DNA of 64,000 bases, taken from contig CAWHXY010000004.1 in NCBI GenBank assembly GCA_963833575.1, forward strand, positions 1,122,197 to 1,186,196, read 5' to 3'. This DNA is from Candidatus Bathyarchaeota archaeon. Its GTDB lineage: Archaea > Thermoproteota > Bathyarchaeia > Bathyarchaeales > Bathycorpusculaceae. The translations under genes and the position numbers were made by a program. Position 1 is the stretch's first letter, and every line of letters starts with the position of its first letter. Shown one piece after another: positions 36,542 to 46,344 of this stretch. The notes under the pieces are model-generated. The model searched no databases and was not told where the DNA came from. It saw only the letters and a program-made list of their open reading frames with translations.

Positions 36542-36618
36542 TGGAGCCTCGAGCGGGCCTTGCTCCCGCGGCCTGCTGCTTACAAGGCAGCCGCTCTACT
36601 GGGCTGAGCTATCGAGGC
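36542..36618 (-). tRNA. tRNA-Thr(TGT) with atypical D- and T-loops; CCA encoded
   Basis: GCCTCGA/TCGAGGC acceptor stem, GCTC/GAGC D-stem, GCTGC-CTTGTAA-GCAGC anticodon arm, T-arm GCGGG-AGCAAGG-CCCGC. Confidence 0.88.
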
Positions 36619-37052: not shown

Positions 37053-37259
37053 TAATGCAATTCAGCAATATGGGTTATACCATTAAACTGATGCAACTCC
37101 CCATCAACATCGATGTGGAGTGAAGGGTGAAATGACTTCGCCAAGTCACGGCGGAGATCACAATGACACCATGCATAGGTCAAACAAACAACGACGCAAC
37201 ACAATAAATTAACGAGAAATGTGTGTTTCATCAAACGCCAAACAAACACCACCTATGGC
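37053..37259 (+). other. 23S pre-rRNA 5' leader and processing stem (pairs with about 40280-40377)
   Basis: gagaaatgtgtg..aaacacca pairs with tggtgttt..cacatgtttctc; atgcataggtcaaacaa pairs with ttgtttggcctatgcgt; TATA-like cttatat near 37030. Confidence 0.7.
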
Positions 37260-40278
<3,019 letters not shown>

Positions 40279-40490
40279 CCTCTAGATGGTGTTTGAGCGA
40301 TATTTGGTGCGCACATGTTTCTCAATATGTGTTGATAAGTTCTTGTTTGGCCTATGCGTGGCGAACATATTGCATTTTGGTTTCTTCATTTTTGGTTAAT
40401 CGATTCTCTGTAAGTTGAATTTTTGATCATGCGTTTCGCTTTTTTGATGTTAGATAAATTCAAATTGTCATTTTGCTAATGGCTTCTTGA

Positions 40491-41573
40491 TTGTCGATGA
40501 GTGAGAAGAGGAAGCGTTTCATTTTCCATTTAGATATGGATCATTTCTATACAGCAGTTGAAGAGCGGGAACGACCAGAAATCCATGGCAAAGCAGTAAT
40601 CGTAGGTTCTGACCCTAAAGGAGGCAAAGGCAGAGGCGTAGTTAGCACAAGCAACTACGTCGCGAGAAAATCGGGTGTCCGGTCAGCTATGCCTATTTCC
40701 CATGCTTGGCGGCTGTGTCCAGAAGCAGTTTATTTGCCGCCGAATTTTCCTCTATACATCAAGGTTTCAGAAGGAATCATGGAAATCGCACGTAGGTACG
40801 CGGATAAGTTTGAGCAGTGGGGAATTGATGAGGCTTTTTTGGATGTTACTTGCAAAGTGAAAGATTATTTTGAGGCTGAAAAATTAGCGAGACAGATTAA
40901 ATCGGAGATAAAAGAGAAAGAAGGTCTTACTGCCTCTATCGGTGTTGGGCCTAACAAGCTTGTAGCTAAGGTTGCCAGCGATTTTCAAAAACCAGACGGC
41001 TTAACAGTTGTTCGAGAGGAGGAGGTTGAGCTATTTTTGGCGCCTTTGCCTGTGCGTAAGCTATTATGGGTTGGACGTAAAACCGAGACTAAACTAAAAG
41101 AGTTAGGAGTAAGCACCATCGGAGATTTAGCAAAGTATGATGCTTCAGCTTTGACTTCAATGTTTGGAGTGATGGGTTGGCAGATGCATTTGATGGCAAA
41201 CGGCATTGACAGCGACGAGGTTGAAGAGCGTGTTGGCGTTAAGAGTGTAAGCCACGAAACAACTTTTGAGGAGGATACAGCAGATTCAACTATTATTTTT
41301 CAAGCATTAGAGGCGCTTTGCATCTCTGTTCAAAAAGAAGCCGAAAATCAGAATTTGCTCTTCAAAACAGTTACTCTGAAAATTCGTTTTGAACATTTTG
41401 AGACCCATACCAAAAGCATAACTCTACCTTTCTTAACTAACCGTCTTTATGACCTACAAAAAACCGCAAGAGGCCTACTTTCTCCCTATTTGCACAAAGA
41501 CCGGAAAGTCAGGCTTATAGGCATTAGGGTTTCAAGTTTGGTTTCGATGGAAAAGCAGAAAACGCTGCTCTAA
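40491..41573 (+). CDS. dinB: Y-family DNA polymerase IV (DinB/Dpo4)
   Basis: HLDMDHFY, SNYVAR, GIDEAFLD and NKLVAKVASDFQKPDG. Confidence 0.95.
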   Translation: MSMSEKRKRFIFHLDMDHFYTAVEERERPEIHGKAVIVGSDPKGGKGRGVVSTSNYVARKSGVRSAMPISHAWRLCPEAVYLPPNFPLYIKVSEGIMEIARRYADKFEQWGIDEAFLDVTCKVKDYFEAEKLARQIKSEIKEKEGLTASIGVGPNKLVAKVASDFQKPDGLTVVREEEVELFLAPLPVRKLLWVGRKTETKLKELGVSTIGDLAKYDASALTSMFGVMGWQMHLMANGIDSDEVEERVGVKSVSHETTFEEDTADSTIIFQALEALCISVQKEAENQNLLFKTVTLKIRFEHFETHTKSITLPFLTNRLYDLQKTARGLLSPYLHKDRKVRLIGIRVSSLVSMEKQKTLL

Positions 41574-42121
41574 GGCTCCTCAACTTTTTGTGGAACCAGA
41601 GGTTTGCCAAAAGTTTCTTCGCTAGCCACTTCACTAAGTGTTTTTCTTGAACGTATCAGATGTAACATTTTGCTTGACAAATCCACTTTTTCACGTGCAT
41701 AGCCAACTGCAAGCATTACTAGAACTTCAAAGTTGTGAGGAATCTTTAGCACCTCTTGAACATCTTTCTCGTTAAAGCTTCCCACGCAGCAGGTTCCTAA
41801 TCCTTCGCTTAGAGCTGTTAAAATCATGTTTTCTAGGGCTAATGCAACGTCGATGGCGTGCCAGTCAGGAGAACCTTTTTTGTCACCACAAGCAACAATG
41901 ACCAGAGGCGATTGCGTAAGAAACTTTGCGTACAATCCCTTAGACAACGCTTTCCTTTTTTCTTTATCAGTTACCGCAATAAAATGCCAAGGTTCAGAGT
42001 TTTTTGCTGAAGGTGCAAGTTGTCCAGCCTCCAAAATCTTCTCCAGCTTTTCTCTTTGAACAGGCTTATCTTGATAAGCACGGATGGATCTTCTTTCTTA
42101 TGTAGCCTCAAAAACATCCAT
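41570..42121 (-). pseudogene. Nitroreductase-family gene with an in-frame TAA at codon 8 (42098-42100)
   Basis: MDVFEAT*ERRSIRAYQDKPV...APSAKNSEPW; the FMN-binding RRSIR motif lies upstream of the track's ORF start. Confidence 0.8.
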
Positions 42122-42312: not shown

Positions 42313-42969
42313 TTACGTTTCATACTCTGAAGGATCTGTTATACCTGCTTCTTTGAAGGCTTTTTTGCGGTTTACACAGGATTCGCATTTGCCGCAGTGC
42401 TTCTGAGCGTCACGATAGCAAGACCAAGTGAACTCTAAGGGTACGCCTAGTTCAGTTCCTTTTTTGATTACTTCTGATTTTCGTTTGCCGCCAAACGGCG
42501 CTTGGATATTGATGTGCTCGCCCGTGCCCAACTGCGCCGCCTTTTCGAATGCCTCGTAGAATTCACGTCGGCAGTCAGGGTAGAAGGGTTCGTCTGAACC
42601 ATGTGCACCATAAAAGATTTTGTTAGCGCCAACCGAAACTGCGTAAGAAACCGCAACTGAGAGAAAAATCGCATTTCTGAAAGGAACTATTATGGGTTGG
42701 CTGAACTCAGAGGTTAGAGGAATGTTGTTGTTGCAGAGTGAGGTTACTTCACCAAAGACTTCTTTTAAGGCTGAGAGGTTAACGATTTTCGTTTTGCCTC
42801 CGAGGCTTTCTGCGATTTTTTCTGCCGATTTGGTTTCTTTTACGGCGATTTGCCCGTAATTGAAGGTTATTGGATAGAGGTCATAGCCCTCTTTTTTTGC
42901 CCAGTACGCCACTACGGCTGAGTCTGGCCCTCCGCTGAGAACCACTACACATTTTAGTTTTTGTGTCAT
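42313..42969 (-). CDS. queC: 7-cyano-7-deazaguanine (preQ0) synthase
   Basis: SGGPDS, FNYGQ, VPFRNAIFL, YPDCR and TWSCY..CGKCESC. Confidence 0.95.
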   Translation of the reverse strand: MTQKLKCVVVLSGGPDSAVVAYWAKKEGYDLYPITFNYGQIAVKETKSAEKIAESLGGKTKIVNLSALKEVFGEVTSLCNNNIPLTSEFSQPIIVPFRNAIFLSVAVSYAVSVGANKIFYGAHGSDEPFYPDCRREFYEAFEKAAQLGTGEHINIQAPFGGKRKSEVIKKGTELGVPLEFTWSCYRDAQKHCGKCESCVNRKKAFKEAGITDPSEYET

Positions 42970-43010: not shown

Positions 43011-43508
43011 TTAATTTGGAAACCATTTTTGGAATACAGAGTTCCTTTTCAGTAATTTGAATAATGGCCATCCGATTAGTACAGTTGCAACTAGGTTTCC
43101 TATGATGACGTAGGTTATGCTAAACGGCAGAGGTATGTTGAACGGGGCGGATAGCATCCAGCCGACTGTTATGCCTAAAACAACCGAGTACGCAGCACAG
43201 CTTCCAATAACGGTATAGTCCTTTTTTGTCCGTTTGTACAGAAAGTAGACTACAAAAGACATGGCAAATGATGGTATCGTGTTAATTAGGTCGATTGGAC
43301 CAAGTGGTGAGTATAAATTACCGACGAATACTCCAAGTGTGTGCCCCAAAACTCCAGGTAAACCCAATAATGGAATGACAGCAACCATCGAGTCAGCGAT
43401 TCGGACTTGAACAGGCCCAAAAGAGATGCCTCCGAGAACAATAACAAGCGCTGCGTAGAGTGCAGCGTACATGGCGATTAAGGCTAAATCTTTAGTTTTT
43501 ATTTTCAA
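43011..43508 (-). CDS. queT: QueT-family (COG4708) deazapurine transporter
   Basis: IAMYAALY, ISFGPVQVRIAD and GNLYSPLGPID; adjacent to queC. Confidence 0.85.
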   Translation of the reverse strand: MKIKTKDLALIAMYAALYAALVIVLGGISFGPVQVRIADSMVAVIPLLGLPGVLGHTLGVFVGNLYSPLGPIDLINTIPSFAMSFVVYFLYKRTKKDYTVIGSCAAYSVVLGITVGWMLSAPFNIPLPFSITYVIIGNLVATVLIGWPLFKLLKRNSVFQKWFPN

Positions 43509-43518
43509 GTGAAATTTG

Positions 43519-43588
43519 CCTCCCTATCCCGGGTTTTATTTATCGTTGGCGGAACGGGTAGGAGACTTCACTCACCCGCCAATTGCCC
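43519..43588 (-). promoter_or_regulatory. Candidate preQ0/preQ1 riboswitch in the queT-queC leader
   Basis: P1 UUGGCGG/CCGCCAA, A-rich linker AAAUAAAAC, loop CUCCUACCCG complementary to CGGGAUAGGGAG (covers the SD), plus a mutually exclusive inner hairpin. Confidence 0.6.
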
Positions 43589-43753
43589 TTTGAAACTTGA
43601 TAGTTGCCTAAAAAGCTTTAGTTAACATGGCGGTGGTTTTTCATAATGAGCTGCGTAGGGGCGAAATATTAATAAAGTCCTTGGAAAGATTACATGATGA
43701 TACTCCTAATGGATATTGCATTCCTCAAAACGAGTTTTAGGGAGCACAAAACT

Positions 43754-44398
43754 ATGTCACAAAATAATTCAGCTAGTCAACTAGTCCTTAAAGGAACCAC
43801 AACGATTGGCGTCGTCTGCAAAGATGGCGTAATATTAGCTTCAGATACGCGAGTAACTATGGGTTACTATGTTGCACATAAAGCTGGCAAAAAAGTCTAC
43901 AAAATCGATGACCATATAGGTATGACTATCGCTGGAACCGTTGCCGATGCACAAAGAGTAGTTGATATTCTAACAGCCAACGCGCACCTCTATAAAATAA
44001 ACATGAATCGGCCGATGCCAATTAGCTCAGCGGCAAGGCTTGTTGCTAACTTACTGTTTTCTGCACGCTACATACCTTTGGCGACACAGGTTCTAGTTGG
44101 CGGTGTAGATGATACGGGTCCACACGTGTACAATTTGGATCCGTACGGTAGCTTGACTGAGGAAAAGTCAGTTTCAACTGGTTCTGGTTCACCGATCGCT
44201 TATGGTATTCTTGAGGACAAATATCGTGAAGGCTTAACTATTGCTGAAGTGTTGCCAACGATTGCTAAAGCAGTTAATGCAGCAATGAAAAGAGACGTCG
44301 CAAGCGGCAACAGTTATAATATCATTGTAATCGACGATAATGGTTACCGCGAATTATCTGATGAAGAGAAATCGAAACTTCTCAAGGTAGGAAGCTAA
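43754..44398 (+). CDS. psmB: Proteasome beta subunit
   Basis: Propeptide followed by KG|TTTIG and GSGS; start placed at ATG 43754. Confidence 0.96.
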   Translation: MSQNNSASQLVLKGTTTIGVVCKDGVILASDTRVTMGYYVAHKAGKKVYKIDDHIGMTIAGTVADAQRVVDILTANAHLYKINMNRPMPISSAARLVANLLFSARYIPLATQVLVGGVDDTGPHVYNLDPYGSLTEEKSVSTGSGSPIAYGILEDKYREGLTIAEVLPTIAKAVNAAMKRDVASGNSYNIIVIDDNGYRELSDEEKSKLLKVGS

Positions 44399-44403
44399 AT
44401 ACT

Positions 44404-46344
44404 GTGGCTCGAAGCAATCCTGCTCGAAATCAAGATAAAGAAAAAGATAAAATAGAAATTAGCCAATTTATTTTAGAGAAAGTTCCGCGAGAGGCAGAAG
44501 TTACGAGAATTGAATATGAAGGGCCCATGCTTGCGGTTTACACTAAGAAACCCGAGATTTTGGTTGAACAAAGTGGCATCGTCGCGGAGATAGTCGGTGT
44601 AATTCGTAAGAGAATAGTAATACGTCCGGACCCCTCAGTTAGAATACCTGAAGTAGAAGCTGAAAAAATCGCTCGGGAACTGATTCCAGCTGAAGCTGAA
44701 ATTACAGACATTAATTTTGACCCAAGTCTGGGCGAAATAATTATTGAAACAAAAAAGCCTGGCTTGGTTATTGGAAGAAACGGCGCTGTTTTGCAGGAAA
44801 TTATAAAGAATACTAAGTGGCGTCCCCATGTTTTGCGCAGCCCGCCAATAAAGTCAAAGATTGTTACTCACATGCGTCATTACTTGCATTCTGAAAGTAA
44901 AGAACGAGAAAGAATCCTTCGCACCGTTGGTGAACGGATCTTTAGACCTAAAAGTTACGAGGTCGGAGACATTCGTATGACCGTTCTCGGTGGAGCACAA
45001 GAAGTGGGTCGTTCAGCATTTCTAGTTAAAACGAGGGAAAGCAGTGTTTTGCTTGATTGTGGTATTAATCCTGGTTCAAACCGTCCATTTGAATCATTTC
45101 CGAGGTTCGATTGTCCAGAATTCCAGATTGATTCATTAGATGCAGTTGTTATCAGTCATGCTCATCTTGACCACTGCGGTTTAGTGCCATTTCTCTACAA
45201 GTATGGTTATGATGGTCCAGTTTACTGTTCTGCGCCCACCTCAAATTTAATGACTATGTTGCAGTTAGATTATCTAGATGTTGCAGGCAAGCAAGGTGTT
45301 ACGCCTTATTATGACCAAAAAGACGTGCGAGAATGCGTTTTGCACACTATCCCGCTTAGATACGGTGTAGTTACTGATATTGCACCTGATATTCGTTTAA
45401 CTCTGCATAATTCAGGTCACATTTTGGGCGGTGCAATGGTTCACCTGCACATAGGCGAAGGTTTACACAATATTGTTTACACAGGCGACTATAAATTCGC
45501 CAGAACGATGCTGTTAGAAGCTGCCGCCACAGAATTCCCACGCATTGAAACGGTTATTACTGAGAGCACTTACAGCGGCGCGGACGATGTTATGCCTTCG
45601 CGACTTGAAGCTGAAGAAGCTATGACACGTGTGATCAACAAAACATTGGAACGAAAAGGTAAAGTCCTAATTCCAGTGCCCGCCGTCGGCAGAGCCCAAG
45701 AAATAATGCTTATCATCGATGGTTACATGAAACGTGGTTTAATGAAGGAAGCACCAGTTTTCATTGAAGGCATGATTAGCGAAGCCACAGCTATCCACAC
45801 AGCTTACCCCGAATATTTGGGTAGAGAAGTACGCCACAGCATCTTGCATGAAGGAATTAATCCATTTCAAAGTGACTACTTCACTATTGTCGAGCATCCA
45901 AGTGTTAGACAAAGCATTATTGAAGGAGAACCGTGTATCGTGTTAGCTACTTCAGGCATGCTTGAAGGCGGACCAGTAATCGAATATTTCAAAAATTGGG
46001 CTAACGACGAAAGGAACACAATAATTTTTGTCAGCTACCAAATTGAAGGTACGATGGGGCGAAGAGTGCAAAAAGGCGTTGGCGAAGTAACAATGATGGA
46101 TAATGAAGGCAAGATAGCCGCGCTACAGGTTAAGATGCAAAATGAATCAATTGAAGGATTTTCAGGTCACTCAGATAGGCGGCAACTGGTTAATTACTTA
46201 ACTCATCTGACGCCAAAGCCTGAACGCATATTTGTTGTGCACGGTGAAAAACAGAAGACTATGAGTTTCGCCAATTTTATGGATACGAAAATGGGCATAA
46301 ACACCGTTGTCCCAGCAATTCTCGAAACTTTTAGGCTACTTTAG
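44404..46344 (+). CDS. fttA: KH-domain beta-CASP ribonuclease aCPSF1/FttA
   Basis: Two KH domains, SHAHLDH, GHILG, YTGD, GFSGHSD and VHGE; conserved adjacency to psmB. Confidence 0.95.
   Translation: MARSNPARNQDKEKDKIEISQFILEKVPREAEVTRIEYEGPMLAVYTKKPEILVEQSGIVAEIVGVIRKRIVIRPDPSVRIPEVEAEKIARELIPAEAEITDINFDPSLGEIIIETKKPGLVIGRNGAVLQEIIKNTKWRPHVLRSPPIKSKIVTHMRHYLHSESKERERILRTVGERIFRPKSYEVGDIRMTVLGGAQEVGRSAFLVKTRESSVLLDCGINPGSNRPFESFPRFDCPEFQIDSLDAVVISHAHLDHCGLVPFLYKYGYDGPVYCSAPTSNLMTMLQLDYLDVAGKQGVTPYYDQKDVRECVLHTIPLRYGVVTDIAPDIRLTLHNSGHILGGAMVHLHIGEGLHNIVYTGDYKFARTMLLEAAATEFPRIETVITESTYSGADDVMPSRLEAEEAMTRVINKTLERKGKVLIPVPAVGRAQEIMLIIDGYMKRGLMKEAPVFIEGMISEATAIHTAYPEYLGREVRHSILHEGINPFQSDYFTIVEHPSVRQSIIEGEPCIVLATSGMLEGGPVIEYFKNWANDERNTIIFVSYQIEGTMGRRVQKGVGEVTMMDNEGKIAALQVKMQNESIEGFSGHSDRRQLVNYLTHLTPKPERIFVVHGEKQKTMSFANFMDTKMGINTVVPAILETFRLL

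Follow-up and report, generated by a model that had tools for sequence, protein, structure and literature searches.

A conserved RNA pseudoknot ahead of queT, queC and queE-like genes in many archaea, a candidate riboswitch for 7-deazaguanines

The leader of queT and queC

The stretch of DNA analysed here, referred to as the window, comprises 64,000 nucleotides (nt) from Candidatus Bathyarchaeota archaeon (contig CAWHXY010000004.1, positions 1,122,197 to 1,186,196) and contains two neighbouring genes, queT and queC, on its minus strand. The first of them, queT (43011..43508), encodes an energy-coupling factor (ECF)-type S component of the QueT family with 165 amino acids (aa) (Pfam PF06177, E 2.4e-24). 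The second, queC (42313..42969), follows 41 nt after queT and encodes a protein of 218 aa belonging to the 7-cyano-7-deazaguanine synthase family (Pfam PF06508, E 6.9e-63). Between a TATA-like box and these two genes lies a leader (43588 to 43519) which can be folded into a pseudoknot that includes the Shine-Dalgarno (SD) sequence of queT. A conserved RNA pseudoknot of this type, about 65-70 nt in length, is found ahead of queT, queC and queE-like genes in many archaea.

Read from 5' to 3' on the minus strand, the region begins with the element AAAG-C-TTTTTAGG (43607..43619), which resembles a B recognition element (BRE) joined to a TATA box and would act as the promoter. TTTTTAGG itself covers 43614-43607 and includes the hexamer TTTTTA (43614-43609). 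Between the end of TTTTTAGG at 43607 and the sequence GGGCAA, which starts at 43588, there are 18 nt. GGGCAA (43583..43588) lies about 26-27 nt past the centre of the TATA box and represents the predicted zone of the transcription start. It is followed by the 5' strand of the first helix (P1), UUGGCGG (43576..43582), assigned from the sequence and alignment counts, by the loop L1 GUGAGUGAAGU (43565..43575) and by the 5' strand of the pseudoknot helix CUCCUACCCG (43555..43564), which is the anti-SD strand and was assigned from covariation and duplex energies. The loop L2, UU (43553..43554), leads to the 3' strand of P1, CCGCCAA (43546..43552), and the A-rich linker L3 CGAUAAAUAAAACC (43532..43545) leads to the 3' strand of the pseudoknot helix CGGGAUAGGGAGG (43519..43531), which contains the SD sequence GGAGG (43523-43519). 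After a spacer of 10 nt (43518-43509), queT begins with the start codon UUG (43506..43508). In its orthologues, the start codon (TTG, ATG or GTG) occupies the corresponding position of the alignment.

This arrangement corresponds to the strand order S1-L1-S2-L2-S1'-L3-S2' of an H-type pseudoknot, and both helices are supported by the alignment columns described below. In the window, P1 comprises seven base pairs (bp), and the loop pairs with the SD region over 10 pairs with two bulges. P1 alone and the loop-to-SD helix alone reach -9.6 kcal/mol each, and the pseudoknot strands evaluated as a duplex reach -13.1 kcal/mol. Since the genome's own 16S rRNA (G000:C4:51208-52702) ends with ...GGATCACCTCCT, which is complementary to GGAGG, the sequence at 43523-43519 can be regarded as a proper SD. 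It is located inside the pseudoknot helix and forms its 3' strand, and the putative expression platform is coupled in this way to the candidate aptamer.

An earlier note on this DNA, made from the sequence alone, had written the leader of the minus strand with exactly this sequence and these ends (43588/43519) and had named both genes, which is borne out by the Pfam matches of the two open reading frames (ORFs). It had further placed the TATA-like element TTTTTAGG at 43614-43607, where a peak of A+T lies at a fixed distance across 168 leaders. Its proposed fold of a 7-bp P1 and a loop-to-SD helix can be drawn as described, with both helices covarying across the family, and the burial of the SD that it deduced agrees with the position of GGAGG within the pseudoknot helix and with the 3' end of the 16S rRNA.

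In these 168 leaders, the A+T content amounts to 0.86-0.90 at the positions -33..-30 from the G of the GCGG anchor, and an A-rich stretch is found at -41..-37 from the same anchor. The profile has the shape of an archaeal BRE/TATA, and the element presumably functions as such. In archaea, the distance from the TATA box to the transcription start follows a usual spacing. Based on this spacing and on the fixed position of the TATA box, the start is predicted 2-6 nt before P1 in the aligned leaders (1-6 nt in the window), and therefore the motif would make up essentially the entire 5' untranslated region (UTR). Public RNA runs with matching sequence contained it in small shares only (0.12 or less), as contigs. 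In four metatranscriptome runs, contigs of relatives (mostly 88-95% alike) overlapped the 5' region of queT and portions of the leader, and these contigs show neither start nor strand.

Spread and covariation of the motif

QueT was found in 51 of the 61 genomes searched, and the upstream regions of QueT genes from 60 relatives were read. Within the genus, all 25 orthologous queT leaders contained the pseudoknot element, and a covariance model (R1) was built from these 25 leaders. Matches to R1 were obtained in 114 of 151 genomes of the order sample (53 of 63 genera and 83 of 105 high-quality genomes), in 89 of 151 genomes of the class sample (51 of 79 genera) and in 27 of 151 genomes of the phylum sample, the last including families outside the class (f44 with 9/15, f56 with 3/3 and f60 with 2/2). 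The phylum of a Promethearchaeota-titled genome likewise showed matches in 27 of 151 genomes. Since the order, class and phylum samples overlap and the genomes are related, these figures describe the spread of the motif and not independent events. The copy number was nearly always one per genome.

A pattern scan of one genome per prokaryotic species resulted in at least 119 stretches. Among the 80 matches listed, 78 were confirmed by R1 and all 78 are archaeal; the two bacterial rows (L168 and L177) were not confirmed. The titles among the matches listed are mostly those of metagenome-assembled genomes (MAGs) of Bathyarchaeia or Bathyarchaeota, together with Methanomethylicota, several MAGs labelled Nitrososphaerota, one Promethearchaeota and one Hodarchaeota. 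One carrier among them (L117) bears the title of a complete genome, that of Candidatus Bathyarchaeum tardum M17C-01. The pattern scan of viral contigs gave 0 matches.

For the analysis of covariation, 150 distinct copies were aligned with MAFFT, an alignment fitted to no structure (referred to as A5), in which P1 occupies the columns 6-12/40-46 and the pseudoknot helix the columns 27-37/64-79. Three loci without this type of motif (L028-L030) and 14 duplicate cores were dropped before the counts, and L004 and L011 are not part of A5. Standard pairs were found in 91.4% of 2652 cells compared to 83.7 +/- 0.4 in shuffles, and 12 of the 18 pairs showed two-sided changes. The number of cells changed on both sides was 217 compared to 74.6 +/- 6.5 in shuffles, none of 500 shuffles reaching 217; this control ignores phylogeny, and the figures are not to be read as P-values. 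The covariation score was 0.250 compared to 0.121 for the shuffled alignment and 0.056-0.076 when the 3' partners were slid by 1-3 columns, so that the slid-partner control, which keeps phylogeny, gave the same answer. A conserved and covarying structure in orthologous leaders had been named beforehand by the earlier note as the check on its proposal, and it was found.

In 144-150 of 149-150 rows, the core columns of P1 (8-44 to 12-40) form pairs. At the innermost of them (12-40), 128 copies have G-C and 21 have C-G, and the fifth pair occurs as G-C (119), A-U (11), G-U (7), U-A (5) and C-G (2). Counted per sequence without alignment, the length of P1 ranges from 4 to 11 bp with a mode of 5-7. 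The pseudoknot helix is represented by 11 pairs in A5, of which 94.9% of cells are paired and eight show two-sided changes; across the family it comprises 9-12 bp with conserved bulges. True point compensations, from C-G to U-A and from A-U to G-C, were observed in it at single positions. Compensated strands are CUCGC/GCGAG in an Asgard subgroup, ACAUCUC/GAGAUGU in L170 and CCACC/GGUGG in L026, L109 and L149. The mean energy of the pseudoknot duplex was -16.3 kcal/mol compared to -9.9 for shuffled 3' strands, and in 159 of 170 copies the duplex was more than 3 kcal/mol better than its own shuffles. Altogether, the leader element is almost certainly a real, conserved, cis-acting structured RNA. 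Because it is present in 25 of 25 leaders of the genus, is matched by R1 in hundreds of genomes and covaries in both helices, it cannot be explained as a chance fold.

The copies from the Asgard phylum (L220-L233, motif at about 1501-1578 of each locus) showed the P1 strands UGAGCGG/CCGCUCA in addition to the core CUCGC/GCGAG, and an L2 of 4 nt (UGCU or AGUU) instead of UU. Due to these distinct features of P1, core and L2, the motif comprises at least two subtypes.

Besides the helices, nine unpaired positions are invariant or nearly so in the 150 sequences. In L1, which opens with G-U, G13 is invariant and T14, G17, T18 and G19 are nearly invariant. In L2, T34 is nearly invariant and T35, the second U of the loop, is invariant, so that UU is present in nearly all sequences. 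The end of L3 carries the invariant A51-A53 and C55-C57 (numbering of L001), corresponding to AAA-N-CC. In the secondary structure, the bases G-U, UU and AAA-N-CC flank the junction of P1 and the pseudoknot helix. The loops vary in length from 8 to 16 nt for L1 and from 7 to 16 nt for L3, which is unpaired, A-rich and without a hairpin. These conserved bases bear on the question whether the leader acts independently of any ligand, as a constitutive attenuator, an RNA thermometer or an mRNA-stability element inherited together with queT. An SD within a helix of about -13 to -16 kcal/mol would by itself damp translation, and the partner fold of a switch is not established by covariation. The mere masking of an SD, however, needs none of the nine conserved unpaired positions, and the motif also precedes QueC and QueE-like genes, whereas RNA thermometers are not usually tied to one pathway. 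A ligand-independent leader is therefore considered unlikely.

Associated genes and a possible mechanism

Among the 152 unique copies, from which two weak secondary matches (L167 on the plus strand and L141, 4464-4486) were excluded, a QueT-like frame opens at most 120 nt from the 3' end of the motif in 138, and four copies run off the contig. QueT was found downstream in all 18 Asgard loci fetched, from which L224 and L234 were omitted as the same places as L104 and L169. In 68 of the 152 unique loci queC follows queT, and 65 have room for it yet contain no queC. At one locus (L154, 200-949) the order is motif, queC (E 6.1e-63) and queT. At two further loci (L122, 1504-2276, and L115, 1802-2571, both on the minus strand) the motif lies directly before a gene of the radical S-adenosylmethionine (SAM) type resembling QueE. 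In NCBIfam, the five best matches of this protein are QueE models without exception; they extend over the full length (E 1e-31 to 1e-16) and stay under the equivalog cut-offs. In L122, the QueE-like gene is followed by a frame with a QueC-like N-terminal motif, as read by eye. In L138 (5056-6627, minus strand), the motif precedes a protein of 275 aa without a family and then queC.

In six unique loci (L062, L063, L072, L074, L163 and L113) the motif lies before a multi-pass membrane protein of 234-241 aa which is not QueT; L063 and L113 were grouped with the other loci by sequence. The coordinates of this gene are L062:1576-2274, L072:1555-2265, L074:817-1518 (minus strand), L163:3874-4566 and L113:5327-6019 (minus strand), and the protein shows conserved GGPGFITLEIVMLP and FHY motifs. 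No Pfam match was obtained for the four proteins scanned (L062, L072, L074 and L163), and no NCBIfam match for that of L163. The comparison with archaeal QueT by hhalign (30% probability, E 5.5e-4) is too weak for the protein to be counted among the relatives of QueT. The protein is a candidate for an undescribed deazapurine transporter.

According to the literature, QueT and QrtT are transporters of queuosine precursors and targets of preQ1 (7-aminomethyl-7-deazaguanine) riboswitches in bacteria (PMC5372724, PMC11130926). The archaeal tRNA-guanine transglycosylase (TGT) inserts preQ0 (7-cyano-7-deazaguanine) into tRNA, as stated in PMC4770233. The genome of the window contains one QueT, one TGT and one gene of the PTPS family (QueD-type). 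All named genes behind the motif, QueT, QueC and QueE-like, belong to one pathway, and this holds true across distant lineages. In this pathway, preQ0 is the product of QueE and QueC. The association with these genes therefore speaks for preQ0 or a closely related compound as the signal, and preQ0 would be the likeliest ligand because it is both the product of QueE and QueC and the base inserted by the archaeal TGT.

The ligand of a riboswitch built in this way could also lie outside the 7-deazaguanines: guanine or some other purine, for instance, or else a cofactor or an ion with a role in ECF transport. Structure, conservation and sequestration of the SD do not identify a ligand, and six unique copies precede the membrane protein without a family. 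This explanation is nevertheless regarded as improbable, since the named genes all belong to one pathway in which QueE and QueC make preQ0, and among the 170 copies examined, none was seen to precede a gene for purine synthesis or for another transporter.

The conserved unpaired bases and the pseudoknot could equally be a binding site for a protein. In such a leader, the SD would be hidden through the binding of a pathway protein, such as the archaeosine TGT or QueC, or through a response to the modification state of tRNA. A TGT gene is present in the genome, and one source reports that a bacterial TGT acts on an mRNA and suggests that the archaeosine TGT (ArcTGT) may act on RNAs other than tRNA (PMC4770233). 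Compared to this, the small size of the element and the identical core in Bathyarchaeia-, Methanomethylicota- and Asgard-titled genomes fit a small invariant ligand better than a co-evolving protein. Furthermore, no candidate regulator gene accompanies the motif in the loci read. Control by a protein or a tRNA is thus also judged to be unlikely.

Based on the sequence comparison, the leader is probably a metabolite-sensing riboswitch. With somewhat less confidence, we favour the reading that its ligand is preQ0 or a close 7-deazaguanine and that translation is turned off on binding. In the scheme that we infer, which covers the binding and the identity of a ligand, its pocket, the ligand-free fold and the direction of control, the H-type pseudoknot of about 65-70 nt would be aptamer and expression platform in one and would form almost the whole 5' UTR of queT-queC. 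P1 would comprise 5-7 bp, the anti-SD strand would pair with the SD region over 9-12 bp, and the A-rich L3 would cross P1. A 7-deazaguanine, most likely preQ0, may bind at the junction bases G-U of L1, UU of L2 and AAA-N-CC of L3. The bound ligand would stabilise the pseudoknot and hide the SD, resulting in a reduced translation of the genes for the import and the synthesis of preQ0 (OFF switch). Without ligand, the G-rich L1 would pair with the anti-SD strand and leave the SD free.

By its sequence, the G-rich segment of L1 can mask the C-rich anti-SD strand in nearly every copy. Folded alone, the 5' part of the window RNA adopts this alternative fold with -15.8 kcal/mol. The earlier note had drawn the same fold as incompatible with a full P1. 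Its inner part is pairable in most copies, whereas its outer pair does not hold across the family. A second register, GUGG/CCAC, is pairable in 89.3% and shows some two-sided changes (e.g. L115 and L170).

Besides the neglect of phylogeny in the shuffles, a number of observations weigh against the structure or the switch as proposed. In poorly aligned columns of A5, the outer P1 pairs 6-46 and 7-45 fail to form in 87 and 51 of 149 rows, respectively. For the pairs 29-77 and 30-76, the signal does not stem from point changes: one base pair has been lost on both strands in a subfamily, which contains CCUCC with GGAGG instead of CCUCCC with GGGAGG. Since the SD strand is under conservation of its own, weight comes only from the anti-SD strand and from joint changes. 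Folded as a single sequence, the window RNA showed a z-score of the minimum free energy of -0.99, and 31 of 200 shuffles folded equally well. The single sequence does not beat chance; the statement that the element is more than a chance fold results from the comparison across genomes. Single-sequence folding was rejected as a test, because it nests the SD helix and misses P1, and is therefore uninformative for a pseudoknot.

Concerning the switch, the register of the alternative fold is pairable in 92.7% in A5, and its covariation does not clearly exceed that of the controls. In 22 of 150 rows the outer pair 12-35, whose formation would open P1, is broken; as read by eye, these are essentially the 21 copies in which the P1 pair 12-40 is C-G. 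The second register performed no better than one of its slid controls. L2 lacks the cytidine which pairs with the ligand in preQ1 class I (preQ1-I), and therefore the pocket must be built differently. One contig from an RNA library (X16, record 2) spans 43173-43699 and extends past the predicted start, which could be due to an upstream start, to read-through or to DNA in the library. In addition, the use of the SD in these uncultured archaea is assumed from the tail of the 16S rRNA.

Should preQ0 prove to be the ligand, the archaeosine branch of 7-deazaguanine metabolism would have its first known RNA sensor, and RNA a fourth answer to this recognition problem, of use for studies of how RNA recognises ligands. 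The motif could serve as a functional tag which marks archaeal QueT as a deazapurine importer and flags the membrane protein of 234-241 aa as a candidate transporter. It would also open a way to study how genes are controlled in uncultured Bathyarchaeia and Asgard archaea. With an RNA of about 70 nt and few candidate ligands, the hypothesis is directly testable.

The neighbourhood of the leader comprises further genes. A complete archaeal 23S rRNA gene (37256-40280, plus strand) and a tRNA gene (36545-36618, minus strand) lie about 3-7 kb away. Since the 16S rRNA gene is located elsewhere on the same contig (51208-52702), the rRNA genes are unlinked. They are followed by an ORF of 360 aa resembling a Y-family DNA polymerase by eye (40491-41573, plus strand) and an ORF of the nitroreductase family according to Pfam (41570-42034, minus strand). 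On the other side, a proteasome subunit (Pfam; 43694-44398, plus strand) is divergent from queT across the promoter region, and an ORF of 646 aa with an HxHxDH motif of the metallo-beta-lactamase type, seen by eye, covers 44404-46344 (plus strand).

Comparison with known riboswitches

The search of 501 nt and 101 nt of the window with Rfam 15 (4227 families) up to E = 10 gave no match to preQ1-I, preQ1-II or preQ1-III and no other meaningful match. The rows obtained for the window leader, for eight loci and for the leader of L028 were at chance level (CRISPR-DR60, long non-coding RNA exons, Fibrobacter-1 and a plant-virus pseudoknot) and were discarded, as was the row in L009, which is an rRNA fragment. 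A full-text search of the literature, with thin coverage of subscription journals, gave no description of an archaeal preQ0/preQ1 riboswitch or of an archaeal queT leader motif, so that an earlier description is possible. Both results agree with the earlier note, which had seen no match to the preQ1 classes and knew of no archaeal example.

In preQ1-I, a hairpin loop pairs with the sequence beyond an A-rich tail to form a pseudoknot, unpaired conserved bases lie next to the junction of the two helices, and the second helix includes all or part of the SD. The cytidine at the 3' end of its L2 pairs with the ligand, L1 has 2-3 nt and the second helix 3-4 bp. Bacterial preQ1-I (RF00522), which occurs in the leaders of queCDEF and of transporters, thus resembles the archaeal motif in its H-type pseudoknot, the A-rich tail, the genes for 7-deazaguanines and the SD in the second helix. 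Compared to preQ1-I, the archaeal motif shows no model match, an L1 of 8-16 nt, an L2 of UU without the cytidine, a second helix of 9-12 bp with bulges and an aptamer of about twice the size, and it was confirmed in archaea only, among the matches listed. In preQ1-II, the A-rich strand and the SD are separated by an embedded P4 hairpin. This class (RF01054), found in the leaders of COG4708/queT in Streptococcaceae and Lactobacillales, is similar in its position directly before queT and in its compact pseudoknot that hides the SD, whereas the archaeal motif gives no model match, contains no embedded P4 hairpin, has other junction bases and belongs to a different domain of life. For preQ1-III (RF02680), the control of queT is shared and the class of the ligand is presumed to be the same, whereas the archaeal motif is compact (65-70 nt), keeps the SD within its core helix and is not matched by the model. 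As described in PMC11602147, preQ1-I folds as a small H-type pseudoknot, preQ1-II has a P4 and its SD in P3, and preQ1-III forms a pseudoknot of the HLout type, about 100 nt long, whose SD/anti-SD helix is distal and dynamic.

The shared features raise the question whether the leader is a divergent member of one of these three classes that was missed by the Rfam models, which cannot encode pseudoknots. The H-type pseudoknot, the A-rich strand and the SD in the second helix are shared with preQ1-I and preQ1-II (in part according to PMC11602147), and queT is the classic target of preQ1-II and preQ1-III. Since no preQ1 family was found at E <= 10 on either length, and the absence of the P4 hairpin and of the L2 cytidine, the long L1 and the bulged 9-12-bp helix all separate the motif from them, a divergent preQ1 riboswitch is held to be very improbable. 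Altogether, each of the rival explanations accounts for less of the evidence than an OFF riboswitch for preQ0. More likely than not, this riboswitch would be a new class whose ligands belong to a known family, found in a domain with few such classes. Only tentatively can it be suggested that it constitutes a fourth, structurally distinct class for 7-deazaguanines, the first confined to Archaea, tuned to preQ0 over preQ1 and controlling both import (QueT and the membrane protein of 234-241 aa) and synthesis (QueE and QueC). In that case, the junction pocket of G-U, UU and AAA-N-CC would represent a new way for RNA to recognise a deazapurine.

A second, different leader was observed before a QueT paralogue that is about 35% identical to QueT of the window (L028:1401-1506, L029:1401-1506 and L030:1987-2092 on the minus strand), with further loci in L237-L239 and also L244-L249. 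It has the sequence GGUAGUUUCCGUAUAUAACCUACCUUAAAAAACC(C)GG with a TTAATATAG box about 30 nt upstream. Its layout is like that of preQ1-I, with a 5-bp stem, a short L1, a second helix of CCG/CGG, an L2 ending in C and an A-rich tail; the search of the L028 leader gave no Rfam preQ1 match at E <= 10. The sequence is almost invariant, so that it offers no covariation signal. Among 401 genomes of the class, a pattern scan detected it in six, all from the genus of the window (6 of 39). One genome (G030) contains both types of leader (L239 and L240), and the genome of the window is without the second one. If the proposed function of the pseudoknot is true, the two leaders together would mean that archaea use riboswitches for this pathway much like bacteria.

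Outside the preQ1 classes, SAM-II and SAM-V offer a likeness, since in both one compact H-type pseudoknot serves as aptamer and expression platform, with a long L1 along the second helix. Their sequence, ligand and gene context are unrelated to those of the archaeal motif, which gave no Rfam match. The riboswitches for thiamine pyrophosphate (TPP) and fluoride that occur in archaea are likewise cis-acting RNAs in an archaeal 5' UTR. According to a survey from 2017, archaea make use of only a few among the known riboswitch classes, mainly TPP and fluoride, and such elements are regarded as rare in this domain (PMC5473149). While TPP and fluoride riboswitches are shared with bacteria, the present motif is archaeal among the matches listed and was detected in 89 of 151 genomes of one class, and a widespread archaeal motif of this kind would change that picture.

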